NCBI GenBank assembly: GCA_942493095.1
Contig: OW818675.1
Location: 180,001 to 212,000 of the forward strand
Direction of reading: 5' to 3'
From: Candidatus Electronema halotolerans
GTDB taxonomy: Bacteria; Desulfobacterota; Desulfobulbia; Desulfobulbales; Desulfobulbaceae
Length of the DNA: 32,000 nucleotides
Shown: positions 2,847-19,735 of the stretch, one piece after another
Layout of the letters: each line of letters begins with the position of its first letter
How positions within the stretch are numbered: the stretch's first letter is position 1
Notes under the pieces: model-generated
What the model was told of the DNA's origin: nothing
Database searches by the model: none
The model's input: only the letters and a program-made list of their open reading frames with translations
Translations under genes and position numbers: made by a program

Positions 2847-4439
2847 ATGCAGATGACAACGGGCGATCAATCGCCGGTCATTAAGGCGGGCGGCAATGTT
2901 TCGGTAAGCTACGGCTTGGATGAGGAGCGTGTCAAAGCCATGCTGGAGCAGCAGCAAGAGGAGCTGTTCAGGAAGCTGCGGGAGTCCGGCTTTGCGGCGG
3001 ATGACGGCGAACGCCGCCTGCTGGAGCAGCAGTTGCAGGCGGTTTCGGCGAAACTGGCTGACATCGAGCGGAGTTACAACGAAGAACTGGCCCGGCGCAA
3101 GGCGGCAGACAAAGTGCTTGCCCAATTGCGCGGCCAGCTTCCTGAAGCCCAGATTGAGCAGGCGCAGGCCAGTCTGCGGCAGGGCGACACAGCGGCGGCC
3201 CGGCAGGTTTTCCATGCAGTGGCTGACAAAGCAGGCGCGGCGGTCGCGCTGGCCGCTTTCCAGCTTGGACAGATGGCTGAAGGGGATTTGGAATATACCG
3301 AGGCCATGCGGCAGTATAAAAAGGCGGCTGCGCTGGAGGAGGACAATCCTGAGTATCTGCTTGCCGCTGGGAAAATGGCCCGCAAATTGGCGCAGTACAG
3401 GCAGGCGCAGGAATGGCTGGAGCATCTGCTGGAGATCAGGGAGGCGGAAGGGGAGAGCGCGGAGCTTGGCAGCGTTCTGCATGAGCTGGCGTTGCTGCAC
3501 AGGAATCAGGGAAAATATGAGGATGCTGAACCGCTGCATCTGCAGGCGGTTACGGTCAAAGAGAAATTTCTTGGCAAAGAGCATCCTGATGTGGCCGAGG
3601 CGTTGAATGATTTGGCTGTGTTGTACCGTCGTGAAGGGAAATATAAGGAAGCGGAGCCGCTGTATTTACGTGCGCTGGCGGTGAAGGAGAAGGTGTTCGG
3701 TGAGGATCATCCGAGCGTGGCGCAGACGTTGAATGATCTGGCGTTGTTTTATAGAAATCAAGACTGTTTTGCTGATGTTGAGTCTCTGTATCGTCGTGCT
3801 TTTGAAATTAGAGAGAAATACCTTGGAAAAGATCATTTTGATGTTGCAGAAAGTTTAAATAACCTTGCTGTGTTATATAAAGATCATGAAAAATATTTTG
3901 AGGCCGAATCGCTGCATCTGCGCTCAATTGCTATCAAAGAAAGAGTTTTAGGGAAAGATCATCCTTCTATAGCAAACAGTTTATGCAATCTTGCTTTTTT
4001 ATACAGACAGCAAGATAGATACACAGAAGCGGAGCCGTTGTATTTACGCTCTCTTGCTATCAGAGAACAGTCCTTTGGTAAAGAGCATCCTGATGTAGCT
4101 ATAAGTTTGAATAACATTGCAGGTCTTTACCGCAAGCAAGGTAGATACGCAGAGGCTAAACCTTTGCTCCAGCGCGCTCTTGAAATTCGTGAAAACAAAC
4201 TCGGCAAATATCATCCTGACGTGTCAAAGATTTTGCGCACAATGGCTAAACTCTACCGCGACCAAGGCAGATACGCGGAAGCGGAGCCGTTGTTTCAACG
4301 CGCCCTATCCATTATGAAGGAAAAATGTCCTGCCGGGCATTCACGCATTGCCGCCTGCCAGAAGGAATATGACGAAATGAAGGAGAAGATGGCGGAGCGG
4401 GAGCAAGCCGCAATATGGCACGAGGAAGACAATGTTTAA
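2847..4439 (+). CDS. Tetratricopeptide-repeat protein (kinesin-light-chain-type 42-aa TPR units) with N-terminal coiled coil
   Basis: 530-aa ORF. About seven consecutive units of the form LxxLAxLYRxQGxYxEAEPLYxRALxIxEKxLGxxHPDVAxxLNN, giving a 126-bp DNA periodicity over roughly 3470-4320. No NTPase or enzymatic domain seen. Confidence 0.85.
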   Translation: MQMTTGDQSPVIKAGGNVSVSYGLDEERVKAMLEQQQEELFRKLRESGFAADDGERRLLEQQLQAVSAKLADIERSYNEELARRKAADKVLAQLRGQLPEAQIEQAQASLRQGDTAAARQVFHAVADKAGAAVALAAFQLGQMAEGDLEYTEAMRQYKKAAALEEDNPEYLLAAGKMARKLAQYRQAQEWLEHLLEIREAEGESAELGSVLHELALLHRNQGKYEDAEPLHLQAVTVKEKFLGKEHPDVAEALNDLAVLYRREGKYKEAEPLYLRALAVKEKVFGEDHPSVAQTLNDLALFYRNQDCFADVESLYRRAFEIREKYLGKDHFDVAESLNNLAVLYKDHEKYFEAESLHLRSIAIKERVLGKDHPSIANSLCNLAFLYRQQDRYTEAEPLYLRSLAIREQSFGKEHPDVAISLNNIAGLYRKQGRYAEAKPLLQRALEIRENKLGKYHPDVSKILRTMAKLYRDQGRYAEAEPLFQRALSIMKEKCPAGHSRIAACQKEYDEMKEKMAEREQAAIWHEEDNV

Positions 4440-15555: not shown

Positions 15556-16632
15556 CTACGCTGTCCTCACATCCAGCACATCGACCAGCCTGCCGCTGTA
15601 GCTGTTGCGGATCAACTCCCAGAGGGCGGCGTAATCATTGACCGTAATGTTCAGGCTGCTGACAGGCGAACCTGTAAAACCGGGCAGGGTGAAATCGCCG
15701 TTCTGCGTCACCAGCACTTCTGCGCCTGCCGCCCCGCCTTCCTGCATATCGAGCAATGAGAAGAGCAGCCGCTCTTCAGCCACATCTTGCAGCACCTGAA
15801 TGCGCAGCTTCGTGTCTGCGCTGACCGTGCCGCCGGTCACGCTCACATTGGGACTGGCCGCGCTGCCGGTGAGAACGCCGACTTCGGGCGGATTAGGATG
15901 GCCGAAATTCGTCAGGACCAAGGGTGTGCGCAGCCGCCTGCGGTAGGTGCCGGTGCGCAGGGTGCCGTGCTCGGTGTAGCGCATGGAGACCGACAGCGTG
16001 TATTCGTTGTTCCACGGGTCGTCTTGGGCCGGAACAGTCGGAATCAGGATGATGCTGGTGTTGGAAATCGGCCCGAACTGGCTCTGCACCACCCTGCCGC
16101 TGCGGGTGCCGCTGATCACGCATTCGCCGTTGCCCTGCTGCGGCTCAAAGCCGAGATTATCGCCGCTTATCTCAATGACATCAGCACTGACAAGCACATC
16201 GTTGAGCTGCAAGGTGGTGTCTTCGATTTGCTTGATCATGGGCAGCTTTTCGGTCATGTCTTCCCGTTCCAACTGGCCCTGCTGCTGAATCCCTTTCTCA
16301 AAGTTCGCGGTCGCCCGAATCTGCACATGCAGGCAGTCCTCAATCGGCGGCGGCTGGTCGTCTGGACTGTCCAAGCGGCCTGTGAGGGAAATGCTGAAGA
16401 TCAGGCCATCGTCCAAGGTGATGTGCTTGCCCTCAATCAAAGCCTTCTGAATTGTCTGGAGAAACGCGCTGATTGAGGACTTGGCCAAATCCTGGGTCAG
16501 GGCCGGGTTGACCTCGGCCATGCCTGCGGCGACATCGTCCGTGCCGAGGTGGTCGCTGGGAATGAAGCGCATTCTGTAGGACTGGGGCACGGTCAGGGCA
16601 TTGACTTCAGGTTTCCAATGAATTGCAGGCAT
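15556..16632 (-). CDS. HU-like (HU_HIG-type) DNA-binding domain protein with DUF4469-like Ig-fold region
   Basis: 358 aa from the internal ATG at 16632, with GGAGAA 6 nt upstream. The N-terminal approx 100 aa resemble Bacteroides-type HU-like domains (LAKSSISAFLQTIQKALIEGKHITLDDGLIFSISLTG). The middle part (IEISGDNLGF...SIILIPTVP) resembles DUF4469. The track extension to 16827 runs into the repeat array and is rejected. Confidence 0.6.
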   Translation of the reverse strand: MPAIHWKPEVNALTVPQSYRMRFIPSDHLGTDDVAAGMAEVNPALTQDLAKSSISAFLQTIQKALIEGKHITLDDGLIFSISLTGRLDSPDDQPPPIEDCLHVQIRATANFEKGIQQQGQLEREDMTEKLPMIKQIEDTTLQLNDVLVSADVIEISGDNLGFEPQQGNGECVISGTRSGRVVQSQFGPISNTSIILIPTVPAQDDPWNNEYTLSVSMRYTEHGTLRTGTYRRRLRTPLVLTNFGHPNPPEVGVLTGSAASPNVSVTGGTVSADTKLRIQVLQDVAEERLLFSLLDMQEGGAAGAEVLVTQNGDFTLPGFTGSPVSSLNITVNDYAALWELIRNSYSGRLVDVLDVRTA

Positions 16633-16780
16633 GGCGGTTCTCCGAGGCTGAGAAGGTGAGGAGTGAAAAGAACGGTGATTCCCGAAAACTACCTTAAAAA
16701 GCTGCGGCTCTGCTGTCAAGCATTTTTTTTGCCCTGCCGGACGGCTCTTGCCCTGAAGAAGGCAGGCGGCTGATCTGGTA

Positions 16781-16937
16781 AAAAGTACTGCCGTTCTTTT
16801 TCCAAAACAACGAGCGGTGTTTTTCAAAACTACGGGCGGTGTTTTTTAAAACTACGCTCGGTGTTTTCTAAAACTACGCTCGGTGTTTGCTCTGAACTAC
16901 GGGCGGTGTTTTTCAAAACTACGCTCGTTACATTTTT
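16781..16937. repeat. Array of about seven head-to-tail 20-24-bp direct repeats, consensus CAAAACTACGSKCGGTGTTTTT
   Basis: Units begin at about 16781 (degenerate), 16803, 16825, 16848, 16870, 16894 and 16914. Each has a GC core flanked by A4-5 and T4-6 tracts. The array is intergenic, between the DUF1566 gene stop and the HU-like gene start. Confidence 0.85.
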
Positions 16938-16979: not shown

Positions 16980-18230
16980 CTACCGTCCGTCGCGCACCAA
17001 CCGGACCGCACTGTTGCTGCTGCGGTCGTCGATGAAGGAAACGCCGTTGCCGAAACTGACGCTAACCGCGCCGTCCAAGTGCGAGTTAAACACATACGGC
17101 GAACCGGACCAAACAACGGATGCCTTAGTATTCGGAAAAGCCTGTTGATTGATCGTCGGTTCTTCCGACCCATCGTTACACCAACCGCTCTCTTTGTTCA
17201 CCCCCTTGCTGCAATACACCAAGGTTTTCAGTTCATCAATGGTCGGCATCCGCCAGTCAGTATGGTCTGCGTATTCAACATTCTTGAAATGCTTCACCGC
17301 CTCATTCCATGTGTAATACTTCAGCTCGCCCTTTTCGCAGTTCACGCCGGACAAACCTTCTGAGCAGCGTTTCCATATCAAACCGGTTTTCGTGTCAGTG
17401 ACTGTGCCATCGCCATGATAAATATATTGCCCGATTGCTCTGTCTTGCTGTGGCATTTTCTCAGCATTAGGCAGGGGCTGTAGCTTTGGAACTGTCTGCC
17501 GGGACACTGATCCGCCGCGCACCAACCGGACCGCGTTGCCGTCGCTGCGATTGCCGCGAGCGTCGAGACCGGAATAGCCGTGGCCGAAATTGACGAGCCA
17601 CGCATAGGCCGTGCTGTTCGCATCCGGCGACCCGGACCAGTACCACTCCCAAGTATTCGGAAAAGCCTGCTGGTTGATGGTTGGACGTTCCGACTCATCG
17701 TTGCATTCGCCGTCATCTTTGTCTTTCACTCCCTTGCTGCAATGCACCAAGGTTTTCAGTTCATCAATGGTGGGCAGCCGCCAATCAGCATAGCCTGCGT
17801 ATTCAACATTCTTGAAACGCTGCACCGCATCGTCCCATTTATAACTTACCACCTTACCATCTTCGCAGTTATCACCGGATAAACCATCTGAGCATCGTTT
17901 CCACATCAATCCGGTTTTGGTGTCGGTGACTGTACCATCGCCATGATCAATATATTGCCCGATTGTTGTGACTTTTGGTTCTTCGCTGCTGTCAGCAGGC
18001 ATCGATTCCTGCTCCGGCTGGACAATGACAGCAGGAGGTTTTGATGAGGCGGAATTCTTTCCACCGCTATGATGTGCGCCGAACATATACAGTCCCACGC
18101 CTGCTGCCGAACAAAACAAACCGGCAAAAATGAAAAGCAGCAGTTTCGATCTTGGAGGCTGGGGAGGAACCTGCATCTCCTGTTTGCGTTTTTCCTTCGC
18201 ATCTCTGCCATTCTTGGTAAGGATAATCAT
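16980..18230 (-). CDS. Single-pass membrane protein with two tandem DUF1566 (Lcl C-terminal, C-type-lectin-like) ectodomains
   Basis: 416 aa. Basic cytoplasmic tail, TM helix LLLFIFAGLFCSAAGVGLYMF, then a Ser/Pro linker. Two copies of DGTVTDTKTGLxWKRCSxGLSG...W..AV..FKNVEYAG..DWRxPTIDELKTLV...INQQAFPNT...WSGSP...AVRLVR. ATGA overlap with the caspase stop, and AGGAGG lies inside the caspase 3' end. Confidence 0.85.
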   Translation of the reverse strand: MIILTKNGRDAKEKRKQEMQVPPQPPRSKLLLFIFAGLFCSAAGVGLYMFGAHHSGGKNSASSKPPAVIVQPEQESMPADSSEEPKVTTIGQYIDHGDGTVTDTKTGLMWKRCSDGLSGDNCEDGKVVSYKWDDAVQRFKNVEYAGYADWRLPTIDELKTLVHCSKGVKDKDDGECNDESERPTINQQAFPNTWEWYWSGSPDANSTAYAWLVNFGHGYSGLDARGNRSDGNAVRLVRGGSVSRQTVPKLQPLPNAEKMPQQDRAIGQYIYHGDGTVTDTKTGLIWKRCSEGLSGVNCEKGELKYYTWNEAVKHFKNVEYADHTDWRMPTIDELKTLVYCSKGVNKESGWCNDGSEEPTINQQAFPNTKASVVWSGSPYVFNSHLDGAVSVSFGNGVSFIDDRSSNSAVRLVRDGR

Positions 18231-18943
18231 CCTGCCCCTCCTATCATTGATGTCTCCCAGTTCATCGGCACCTGCGCGCCTTCAGCCTGGACTTTCTCAT
18301 GGACGTATTCGTACAGCTCATTCACCGAGATAAGGTCGTCCTCATCTCTGTCCGCTTCGCCGCTGCGGATGCCCTCCAGCAGATGCTTGGTGAACAGGCC
18401 GTTCGAGTCCCCTTCCTTCTCCACCGCTGTCTGAAACGCAGTCGAGGCGGTCATGATGAAGGTGCCCTGCCCGCCGGACATGAGCTGAAGCTGGTCATCC
18501 ACCCCGCCTTTGACAAACTCCGCCCCTGCCGCGCCGCTGTAGCAGCAGTCAAGAATGAGAATCCTCTTCCGTGTGTCGGAAAGATCAAAATACGTTTTGA
18601 TGACTGCCGCAGGAATAGAGGTGGCCTCAAGAGACGAAAAGACCGTGTTGCTGGCAGCAAGACAGAGATGCCCCAAGCGGTTCAGCTTGCCGTGCCCGGA
18701 GTAATAGACCAGCACCAAGTCATCTTGGGCTGCGGCAGAGAGAATGCTGTTCAGCTTGGGCAGGATTTCGTAGCTGGGCCTGTTCTTGAAGACAACAACC
18801 TCGGCGAACAGCCCAAAGTCCGGCGAGACCAGCAGCTCGTGGAGCGCGTCAACGTCGTTCTCCGGGCAGCGCAGTTCATTCAAGCCCGGCTCTTCCGGGA
18901 ACTTGCTGGCAGCTATGAGGATGGCGTAGCGTTTTCCGGCCAT
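18227..18943 (-). CDS. Caspase-fold cysteine peptidase (peptidase C14 / metacaspase-like), cytoplasmic
   Basis: 238 aa. RYAILIAASKF start. Catalytic His context LVYYSGHGKL and catalytic Cys context ILILDCCYSGAAG. No signal peptide. Confidence 0.88.
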   Translation of the reverse strand: MAGKRYAILIAASKFPEEPGLNELRCPENDVDALHELLVSPDFGLFAEVVVFKNRPSYEILPKLNSILSAAAQDDLVLVYYSGHGKLNRLGHLCLAASNTVFSSLEATSIPAAVIKTYFDLSDTRKRILILDCCYSGAAGAEFVKGGVDDQLQLMSGGQGTFIMTASTAFQTAVEKEGDSNGLFTKHLLEGIRSGEADRDEDDLISVNELYEYVHEKVQAEGAQVPMNWETSMIGGAG

Positions 18944-19133
18944 TTCGTTACGGTAGGGGCGTAGGGGCGAAAGATTTTTCGCCCTTTGTTGAGCGCGTCA
19001 ACGTCGTTCTCCGGGCAGCGCAGCTCGGTCAAGCCCGGCTCTTCCGGGAACTTGCTGGCAGCTATGAGGATGGCGTAGCGTTTTCCGGCCATTTCGTTAC
19101 GGTAGGGGCGTAGGGGCGAAAGATTTTTCGCCC
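18842..19133. repeat. 143-bp direct duplication (18842-18984 and 18991-19133, 6-bp spacer, 140/143 identical)
   Basis: Base-by-base comparison at offset 149 bp. The only mismatches are 18875/19024, 18878/19027 and 18879/19028. The unit is the first 102 nt of the caspase CDS plus 41 nt of leader including a hairpin. Confidence 0.95.
18913..19092 (-). pseudogene. Duplicated caspase 5' fragment forming a 59-codon upstream ORF
   Basis: The ATG at 19092 opens MAGKRYAILIAASKFPEEPGLTELRCPENDVDAL (34 codons; one N-to-T change relative to the real gene). It then reads out of frame across the leader copy and the true caspase ATG (18943) to a TAG at 18913-18915. Confidence 0.6.
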
Positions 19134-19137
19134 CTAC
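19110..19137 (-). promoter_or_regulatory. Perfect 12-bp stem hairpin overlapping the EACC1 stop codon
   Basis: GTAGGGGCGAAA-GATT-TTTCGCCCCTAC contains the TAG at 19134-19136. No U-run follows. A shorter 8-bp version (GGGCGAAA/TTTCGCCC, 18965-18984) sits in the other repeat copy just upstream of the real caspase ATG. Confidence 0.5.
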
Positions 19138-19496
19138 CGTTCAATGCAAAGCTGCTGCACCTTCTGAAGCGTTTGCTCAATCTGAGCCGCACTGAAATGC
19201 TCGGCCTTGATCTTCAGCTTGTTGCCGTCCGCCCTCTCAATCTCAAAGCGCAAAGTCGGCTTGCGCTCAACGTAGGATTTCAACACTTGCAGCAAGGCTA
19301 CCACTGTGCCGGAACCCAGCGCAGCAAGCAGTATATCGCCAATGACACCGCCTCTGCTGCCAAGTCCGCCCGCTGTTTCAACCTGCCTTGCCGTCAGATC
19401 AGTTTCCTGACTGATGTCAAGCCGCAGCCTGCCTGTCAGCTCGGCAATGTCCTCAGCAGACAGGCTGCTGTCGTAAAGGGAAAGTGTCGCGTCCAT
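19134..19496 (-). CDS. EACC1-like small protein (effector-associated constant component 1)
   Basis: 120 aa from the internal ATG at 19496, with AGGAGG upstream. Layout: acidic N-terminal segment, Gly-rich hydrophobic helix GGVIGDILLAALGSGTVVALLQVL, basic junction, then RFEIERADGNKLKIKAEHFSAAQIEQTLQKV. This is the pattern I recall for EACC1 proteins (..LGSG....L......R....V..ER.DG.K..I.G.S.EE...L). Confidence 0.72.
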   Translation of the reverse strand: MDATLSLYDSSLSAEDIAELTGRLRLDISQETDLTARQVETAGGLGSRGGVIGDILLAALGSGTVVALLQVLKSYVERKPTLRFEIERADGNKLKIKAEHFSAAQIEQTLQKVQQLCIER

Positions 19497-19735
19497 GAGA
19501 ACCGCCTCCTTGAAAAAAGTCCTATTGCTTGGCGCAGAGCTGCAAAATACCATCATGCCTGCGGAGATAACAAGGAGTTTTTTCCTGAGAACGCTGCCCT
19601 GCCGATCTTCTGCCGCAATCCGCCTCCTCAGCCTTCCTGTGTACAACAGGCGGAAGAACGTGCTATACTCTATTATGCTTGCAGTGCATCCGCCCATCTC
19701 TTGCTGATCAAAAGAACAACCGCTGGAGTTTCACC

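Follow-up and report, generated by a model that had tools for sequence, protein, structure and literature searches.

Why should the 5′ end of a caspase-like protease gene be present twice, head to tail, directly downstream of a gene for an EACC1 protein? The question is raised by one locus of Candidatus Electronema halotolerans, a cable bacterium; the locus lies in a stretch of 32,000 nt (contig OW818675.1, positions 180,001 to 212,000), called the window here, to which all coordinates refer, and its EACC1, caspase-like and sensor open reading frames (ORFs) are all on the minus strand. EACC1, a pore-forming pro-toxin kept inactive by autoinhibition, is activated when an adjacent caspase-like protease cleaves it; this protease usually carries fused sensor domains (Evans et al. 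2025, bioRxiv 10.1101/2025.11.14.688446), and a preliminary description of this DNA had proposed that the duplication gates the translation of the protease. The comparisons reported below point elsewhere: the product of the duplication is probably a non-functional 5′ gene fragment (a 59-codon ORF) and not a dedicated regulator, left by the insertion of an element resembling a repetitive extragenic palindrome (REP) and by a REP-associated local duplication that followed it. The parts of the junction are these:

19134 to 19496, minus strand: EACC1 gene, encoding 120 aa that begin with MDATL (Pfam PF19953, 33.8 bits, the cut-off being 23.6), with an AAGGAGG Shine-Dalgarno (SD) sequence upstream

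19110 to 19137, minus strand: complete 28-nt GTAG-tagged REP-like palindrome, GTAGGGGCGAAA-AATC-TTTCGCCCCTAC

19102 to 19117, minus strand: 8-nt micro-duplication (GCCCCTAC twice) in the 3′ arm of the palindrome, present also in the second copy at 18953-18968

18985 to 19133, minus strand: tandem unit 1, 149 nt, with the palindrome body, a 41-nt SD-less spacer, an ATG at 19092 and caspase codons 1-36 (...DALNK)

18913 to 19092, minus strand: 59-codon ORF, made of 36 caspase codons and 23 out-of-frame codons, which reads across the second palindrome copy and the true caspase ATG

18836 to 18984, minus strand: tandem unit 2, 149 nt, in which a truncated palindrome and the same leader as in unit 1 precede codons 1-36 from the true caspase ATG at 18943

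18227 to 18943, minus strand: caspase-like cysteine protease ORF, 238 aa (Pfam PF00656, Peptidase_C14, 75.2 bits)

Regarding the duplication, the two copies follow each other head to tail on the minus strand between the EACC1 and caspase-like genes, and Tandem Repeats Finder reports them as a single array at 18842-19133, with a period of 149, 2.0 copies, 97% matches and a score of 563. The preliminary description had recognised direct repeats at 18842-18984 and 18991-19133 with 140 of 143 positions identical, which sequence comparison bears out, and had taken the six bases between them, TTTGTT, for a spacer; on the coding strand these bases read AACAAA and are caspase codons 35-36 (Asn-Lys) of the upstream copy. 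Relatives have AAT GAG (L001, L003), AAT GCG (L126) or AAG AAG (L137) at this position, and AACAAA continues the caspase frame as they do, so that the unit is 149 nt long and the fragment holds 36 caspase codons, not the 34 counted at first. The short ORF itself stands as it was described, opening at the ATG at 19092 and running out of frame over the true start, with the same correction from 34 to 36 codons for its caspase part; since the two ATGs are 149 nt apart, the upstream one is out of frame with the caspase, and the ORF stops 30 nt inside the caspase ORF. As for the differences between the copies, the three originally reported are right for the 143-nt repeats, whereas over the full unit there are six, at positions 106, 107, 110, 144, 147 and 149, all of them substitutions and none an indel; they all fall within the last 44 nt of the unit, and none within the first 105 nt (Fisher p = 5e-4).

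The order of hairpin, short ORF, hairpin and caspase is likewise as first described. In the first hairpin, a stem of 12 bp without mismatch (GTAGGGGCGAAA/TTTCGCCCCTAC) encloses a loop of 4 nt, and the fold has an energy of -24 to -27 kcal/mol, with z = -3.7 to -5.5; this stem does hold the EACC1 stop codon, a TAG at 19134-19136 inside the palindrome, whose tag is a coding-strand GTAG at 19134-19137 with CTAC at the opposite end. Both copies do hold a GC-rich hairpin, as had been claimed, but the second (18961-18984) is only a truncated version, having lost the GTAG plus one G and keeping an 8-bp stem of about -14 to -17 kcal/mol. The doubling of GCCCCTAC is found in both copies and is therefore older than the 149-nt duplication; because of it, the first hairpin also has a nearly isoenergetic alternative stem (ACGGTAGGGGCG/CGCCCCTACCGT) of 12 bp with an 18-nt loop. 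Intrinsic terminators were considered and ruled out, as no T-run follows either hairpin, and a search of the 16.5-20 kb region against Rfam at a permissive threshold returned chance-level matches only.

The state of the junction in relatives was compared at 19 related EACC1-caspase junctions, about 11 of which are tightly coupled (the genes being 1 nt apart or overlapping), while eight hold unrelated insertions. A single nucleotide parts the EACC1 stop from the caspase ATG in L001 (Electronema sp. V4), L003 (a JGI contig) and L131, where the junction has the form TGA-N-ATG (AAGGACTGAgATG) and the end of EACC1 contains an AAGGA Shine-Dalgarno sequence; the two genes overlap in L126, L127/L135, L130, L134, L141 and L144. 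The window instead reads CATTGAACGGTAG, followed by the palindrome and the 41-nt SD-less spacer, and, given orthologues with coupled or overlapping genes, this spacer is an insertion. The closest relative at the caspase N-terminus, L137 (78% over 54 aa), has at its junction a short GTAG-type hairpin (GTAAGGG-CTTA-CCCCTAC) and a homologous leader, ...CCCCTACAGTGAACGAAATGG, in a single copy, from which it follows that the insertion predates the duplication.

A look at the EACC1-caspase region of relatives had been suggested as a check on the proposed gate, and its outcome goes against the proposal: a duplicated caspase 5′ end or a tandem repeat is present at none of the 19 junctions, L137 with its shared leader included, and no tandem repeat occurs at the junction in 27 related loci. 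Exact-protein look-ups of the caspase, EACC1 and 59-aa ORF in an assembly index gave no match, nor did the leader, searched as a 49-mer in genome contigs and as a 24-mer in JGI metagenomes. The duplication is private to this genome among the sequences compared.

As for the eight junctions with insertions, these are of at least four unrelated kinds, all placed at or right after the EACC1 stop: a 99-nt palindromic element (L133, L136, L139), a different palindromic element of 97-151 nt (L138, L143, L145), the GTAG hairpin of L137, and, in L132, a 311-nt insertion encoding an HTH_3 protein (99-aa ORF). The EACC1-caspase junction is thus a hot spot for insertions, and more broadly it may be that loss of the coupling between EACC1 and protease is tolerated, or is even of advantage.

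Regarding the palindrome, its core, GGGGCGAAA-N4-TTTCGCCCC, was found at at least 120 genome loci (L005-L124) in many phyla, the hosts belonging to Binatia, Desulfobacterota, Cyanobacteria, Bacteroidota, Chloroflexota, Planctomycetota, Omnitrophota and Gammaproteobacteria, with isolates among them; hairpins headed by GTAGGGGC were taken as related to GTAGGGGCGAAA-N4-TTTCGCCCCTAC. Several genomes (metagenome-assembled genomes, MAGs, and viral contigs) hold multiple copies, and the palindrome is found also in 13 viral-contig stretches (L148-L160); one copy is present in Ca. Electronema aureum, and a variant in Electronema sp. V4. Among the 131 core matches listed, 60 have the full GTA...TAC ends; the flanking positions G-3, T-2, A-1, T+1, A+2 and C+3 are conserved and those beyond are random, so that the element has a sharp 28-nt boundary, the loop is nearly always AATT, AATC or GATT, and the neighbouring DNA is unrelated between loci. 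The hairpin is, on this distribution, a generic element and not a caspase-specific one; as a stable stem-loop of 28 nt it falls within the 20-40 bp expected of a REP, and its features seem to match the GTAG-tagged REP super-family. The members of this super-family end in GTAG, a motif cleaved by the REP-associated tyrosine transposase (RAYT, a Y1 transposase of IS200/IS605 type), often supply the TAG stop of a flanking ORF, are reiterated in tandem along with flanking DNA, and form clusters whose size varies between strains (Di Nocera, De Gregorio & Rocco 2013, PMC3733652).

An all-against-all BLAST of the ORFs from 120 palindrome-bearing loci revealed no gene shared near the palindromes, hence no transposase linked to them in cis. 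RAYTs act in trans. The ORFs lying between paired palindromes were considered as RAYT candidates and rejected, because none resembles one by motif or by eye (a membrane protein in L037, a Fic-like protein in L038, a toxin-antitoxin-like pair in L159). By the same means, palindrome pairs with extended conserved flanks were seen to bracket the Fic-like gene (L038, 94-1385) and the toxin-antitoxin-like pair (L159, 3503-4331, a viral contig). The exact palindrome string was not found in the searchable literature, where the only matches were unrelated primers, nor does it occur in the supplements to the REP survey of 2013 (PMC3733652). Its near-verbatim sharing across phyla is unusual for a REP family. 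Elsewhere, the palindrome lies inside tandem arrays in L034 (period 259), L116 (period 215) and L017 (spacing 180), and micro-reiterations of its arms are seen at other loci; at L158, 6136-6226, the left arm is reiterated in four 21-nt units.

The following history can be proposed for the locus. A 28-nt GTAG-tagged REP-like palindrome would have been inserted exactly at the gene junction in this lineage; what would thereby have been lost is the ancestral coupling (AAGGACTGAgATG), in which the genes are 1 nt apart and the Shine-Dalgarno sequence lies within the end of EACC1. A 41-nt structured, SD-less spacer would have taken its place, and EACC1 would have received its TAG stop from the inserted palindrome. 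The right arm of the palindrome would then have undergone its 8-nt micro-duplication (GCCCCTAC twice), after which the palindrome may have been reiterated head to tail with the adjacent 125 nt, that is, the rest of the spacer and caspase codons 1-36, giving the period of 149 nt, with one breakpoint at the GTAG foot of the hairpin. Finally, the 5′ part of the copies may have been homogenised by gene conversion, or the fragment may come from a slightly diverged allele, either of which would explain why there is no difference over 105 nt and six over 44 nt. The duplication itself would have arisen by misalignment or recombination associated with the hairpin or the REP, and it is likely to be neutral or, at most, to lower caspase translation mildly; the larger change in expression would be the loss of translational coupling at the REP insertion. 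Of the three explanations offered by the preliminary description, a recent scar of slippage type, its last, is the one closest to this evidence. In favour of the same history, the locus bears a second lesion, a frameshift at 18249-18259.

Several observations weigh against this history. The junction of the two units is not a clean microhomology join, since copy 2 is without the GTAG plus one G; at four of the six differing nucleotides (ACC, GAG, AAC) the fragment, and not the functional gene, agrees with relatives such as L126, and this, together with the clustering of the differences, is a poor fit to a simple recent duplication in situ followed by random drift. Head-tail (HT) dimers of REPs are reported as under-represented in the majority of genomes (PMC3733652). 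Within the 32-kb window the palindrome occurs at this locus only; its excess inside tandem arrays is only suggestive (two arrays, against about 0.7 palindromes expected inside arrays by chance), so that the link between palindrome and reiteration comes from the published survey (PMC3733652), and the array ends in L034 and L116 do not lie at the palindrome. Moreover, the absence of the duplication in relatives refers to sequences of at most 78% identity.

Some of these points speak also for a variant of the history, to which we give a small but real probability: the upstream fragment would be the remnant of a slightly different allele or paralogue, joined at the REP by illegitimate recombination. 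Such a mosaic origin accords with the confinement of all six differences to the last 44 nt (p = 5e-4), and with the codons of the fragment, which has Thr23 and Asn35 as in relatives and the ACC GAG pair of L126, where the full-length gene has Asn23 and His35; in addition, the caspase paralogues of the clade look mosaic, P0018 being identical to the window protein over long stretches and diverged elsewhere. However, identity is complete over the first 105 nt, which take in both the non-coding leader and the 8-nt micro-duplication; a duplication in situ followed by gene conversion fits this pattern equally well, and no donor allele was found. Were the origin mosaic, another caspase allele, one with ...GLTELRCPENDVDALNK..., would be expected in this genome or its population.

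The gate in translation, which was the headline of the preliminary description, is possible as a mechanism and has no support from the comparison of relatives. It would act as a safety catch: ribosomes on the decoy ORF would occlude or bypass the caspase start, keeping the pore-activating protease low relative to EACC1. Its geometry is real, as the decoy runs over the true start at 18943 and stops 30 nt into the caspase ORF, and throttling is plausible for a protease that activates a lethal pore-former, the more so where the protease now stands apart from its sensor domains and low expression might be an advantage; the recurrence of structured insertions at the junction, in eight of 19 cases and of at least four unrelated kinds, could also mean that uncoupling is favoured. 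However, the arrangement is conserved in no relative and the hairpin is a generic REP-like element. No Shine-Dalgarno sequence lies within 22 nt upstream of either caspase start, the leader of the decoy being that of the main gene, as the preliminary description had it; EACC1 and the downstream ORF with a transmembrane (TM) segment and Lcl_C domains, unlike the caspase starts, have AGGAGG. With a leader as poor as the real one, the decoy should initiate no better than the gene that it would occlude. The predicted unpaired probability at the true start is practically the same with the extra unit as without it (0.60 in the duplicated sequence against 0.58 in a single-copy model), and copies that are 96-98% identical have had no time for selection to become visible. 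The ORF at 18913-19092 does overlap the start of the main gene as an upstream ORF (uORF) should; it has neither conservation among orthologues, nor an efficient initiation signal of its own, nor a stalling or sensing peptide, its 59 codons giving the caspase N-terminus and an out-of-frame read-through. The only possible effect would be occlusion by ribosomes that initiate weakly on the fragment, and a safety catch is, on balance, unlikely.

One further feature was noted in this region:

18974 to 19001, minus strand: sigma-70-like hexamers, TTGACG-16-AAAAAT, across the duplication junction and just upstream of the true caspase leader, a match to the consensus only

Nine of the 12 hexamer positions match, and the region does not have more such sites than shuffled sequence would lead one to expect.

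The other regulatory proposal, a phase-variable switch in which slippage or recombination adds and removes 149-nt units and so toggles the caspase, is weak, and we consider it extremely unlikely. Two nearly identical direct repeats of 149 nt are indeed a substrate for gain or loss, RecA-dependent or by slipped strands, and REP clusters differ in size between strains (PMC3733652). However, each unit brings its own leader and ATG, so that the true start keeps its frame and its upstream 41 nt whatever the copy number, which therefore cannot turn the ORF on or off as the repeats of a contingency locus do; besides, there are two copies only, and the rate of single-nucleotide polymorphisms (SNPs) in the source MAG is <0.1%.

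A broader version of the regulatory idea is that selection has repeatedly favoured structured insertions at the junction, which would undo the coupling and keep the protease at a low level, with the REP and the decoy duplication as an additional layer of throttling and not a scar. It draws on the variety of the inserted sequences, namely GTAG REPs, two other palindromic elements and an HTH gene, and seems quite improbable to us. The preferred reading is still that of a REP insertion followed by a local duplication.

As for the two genes themselves, Pfam matches and motifs place an EACC1-domain protein beside a cysteine protease with catalytic His and Cys, in line with an EACC1-protease module; the caspase motifs are both present, SGHG from residue 82 and DCCYSG from residue 132. 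The full EACC1-containing ORF extends over 19134-19697, its homologues beginning at MDATL, that is, at 19496, and the EACC1 protein has 60-67% identity to the four orthologues aligned; between the caspase and P0001, a protein of Ca. Electronema halotolerans, identity is 100%. Downstream of the protease come two further features:

18249 to 18259, minus strand: 1-nt frameshift site (TGGGAGACATC), which parts the protease ORF from the downstream ORF

16980 to 18230, minus strand: ORF with a TM segment and two Lcl_C/DUF1566 domains (Pfam PF07603, 204 bits, two stretches)

In the relatives P0002, P0050, P0092 and P0100, one ORF runs without interruption through PMKWD..KG(R/S)MIIAKSG into the linker and the sensor domain, whereas the window needs a 1-nt shift; the protease is thus split here from the part with the TM segment and the two Lcl_C domains. 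The split-off sensor ORF is preceded by an AGGAGG of its own, and its ATG shares bases with the stop of the caspase (ATGA). The frameshift may reflect true decay, may be a split that is functional, or may be an uncorrected Nanopore error. Real decay does occur in this gene family, since the orthologue of Electronema sp. V4 is frameshifted at a different site, inside the caspase domain (L001, 6001-7439), giving P0053 (160 aa) and P0100 (335 aa), and the same frameshifted, truncated product is found in a second assembly from a public sequencing run (Logan, L002); frameshifts are present also in L125, L126 and L145.

The frameshift also touches on the question of whether the duplication is an artefact of assembly or polishing. 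The source genome is a circular MAG assembled with Flye from Nanopore R9.4.1 reads and polished with Racon, Medaka and one round of Racon with Illumina reads, and the adjacent 1-nt frameshift could be an error left by this procedure; moreover, the look-ups found no independent assembly of the locus. The Nanopore and Illumina reads of the BRK sample are deposited (Sereika et al. 2023, PMC10030654). However, every long read spans a tandem repeat of 149 nt, and six substitutions without indels, with codon-coherent states that match relatives, are unlike a spurious duplication. The other genes of the window match their Pfam models end to end, which argues that indel errors are not widespread in it, and the decay of the V4 orthologue is real. 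An artefact is, in our judgement, very unlikely.

Some neighbouring features can be added. The two Lcl_C domains of the sensor ORF are an internal duplication, the segments 17197-17446 and 17725-17974 being 84% identical over 250 nt and 528 nt apart. Between this ORF and the next minus-strand ORF, at 16798-16927, there is a 22-bp tandem array of about 5.7 copies with the consensus TTTTCCAAAACTACGCGCGGTG; the next ORF (15556-16827) encodes 423 aa and has no Pfam match. Among the relatives, L003 has a 41/82-bp array at 3920-4212, just upstream of its EACC1 gene, and sensors of the FGE-sulfatase family (C-type-lectin fold) replace Lcl_C in L003 (5699-6571), L004 (3704-9751) and L127 (4738-5526). 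In L004, genes with HRDC and RVT_1 domains adjoin two caspase-FGE-sulfatase genes, in what looks like a diversity-generating retroelement cassette. For the window, a diversity-generating retroelement was considered on account of the A-rich mismatches and the CLec-type sensor, and it was rejected, as the differences between the units are not adenine-specific to one copy; no reverse transcriptase (RVT) match was found among the 23 window ORFs scanned, and no repeat pair resembling the template and variable repeats (TR/VR) of such elements in the window.

Read as a REP insertion followed by a local duplication, the locus would be an example of how REP-type palindromes remodel operons, the coupled junction having been replaced, a stop codon donated, a duplication seeded and a gene fragment made. 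In annotation, no gene should be called for the 59-codon ORF, and the downstream one of the two ATGs is to be taken as the caspase start. The understanding of bacterial caspase systems is unchanged by this locus. The by-products of the analysis are perhaps weightier, namely that the junction between EACC1 and protease is unusually variable among sequences related to cable bacteria, and that a 28-nt GTAG palindrome recurs near-verbatim across phyla; either could bear on the restraint of toxic protease-effector modules or on the spread of REP-like elements.

Among known systems, the EACC1-caspase modules (Kaur et al. 2020, PMC7159879; Evans et al. 2025, bioRxiv 10.1101/2025.11.14.688446) are close in gene content: EACC1 lies immediately upstream of a protease that is caspase-like, and the C-terminal sensor domains are Lcl_C/DUF1566 at the window locus and FGE-sulfatase in relatives, one of which has a reverse transcriptase adjoining. 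The window differs from these modules, as far as its sequence alone tells, in that a REP and a gene fragment uncouple the two genes and a frameshift parts the protease from the sensor.

The locus resembles bacterial control by uORFs or leader peptides in that a short ORF starts upstream of the main ORF and ends inside it, out of frame; unlike the short ORFs of such systems, this one is a verbatim copy of the 5′ end of the gene itself, and it lacks a Shine-Dalgarno sequence, a conserved peptide and conservation across orthologues. The intercistronic REP of the E. coli malE-malF operon, the subject of Newbury et al. 1987, reportedly causes differential mRNA stability within that operon, and like it the window has a stable hairpin between two cistrons for products that are required in different amounts. 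The hairpin might, by this analogy, shield the EACC1 message that lies upstream and break the coupling to the protease cistron downstream; unlike the window locus, the mal REPs duplicate no part of the downstream gene.

Finally, there is a close parallel in form with the GTAG-tagged REPs, palindromic repeats of the type of bacterial interspersed mosaic elements (BIMEs; PMC3733652): the window has a 28-nt palindrome that ends in GTAG/CTAC and gives a flanking ORF its TAG stop, it is reiterated in tandem with a flanking segment, and in other organisms the element is dispersed, with unrelated flanks and several copies per genome. It departs from the GTAG REPs of that survey in being symmetric, with GTAG on both strands, and from most REP families, which are reported per species or genus, in that an identical 28-mer is shared across many phyla.

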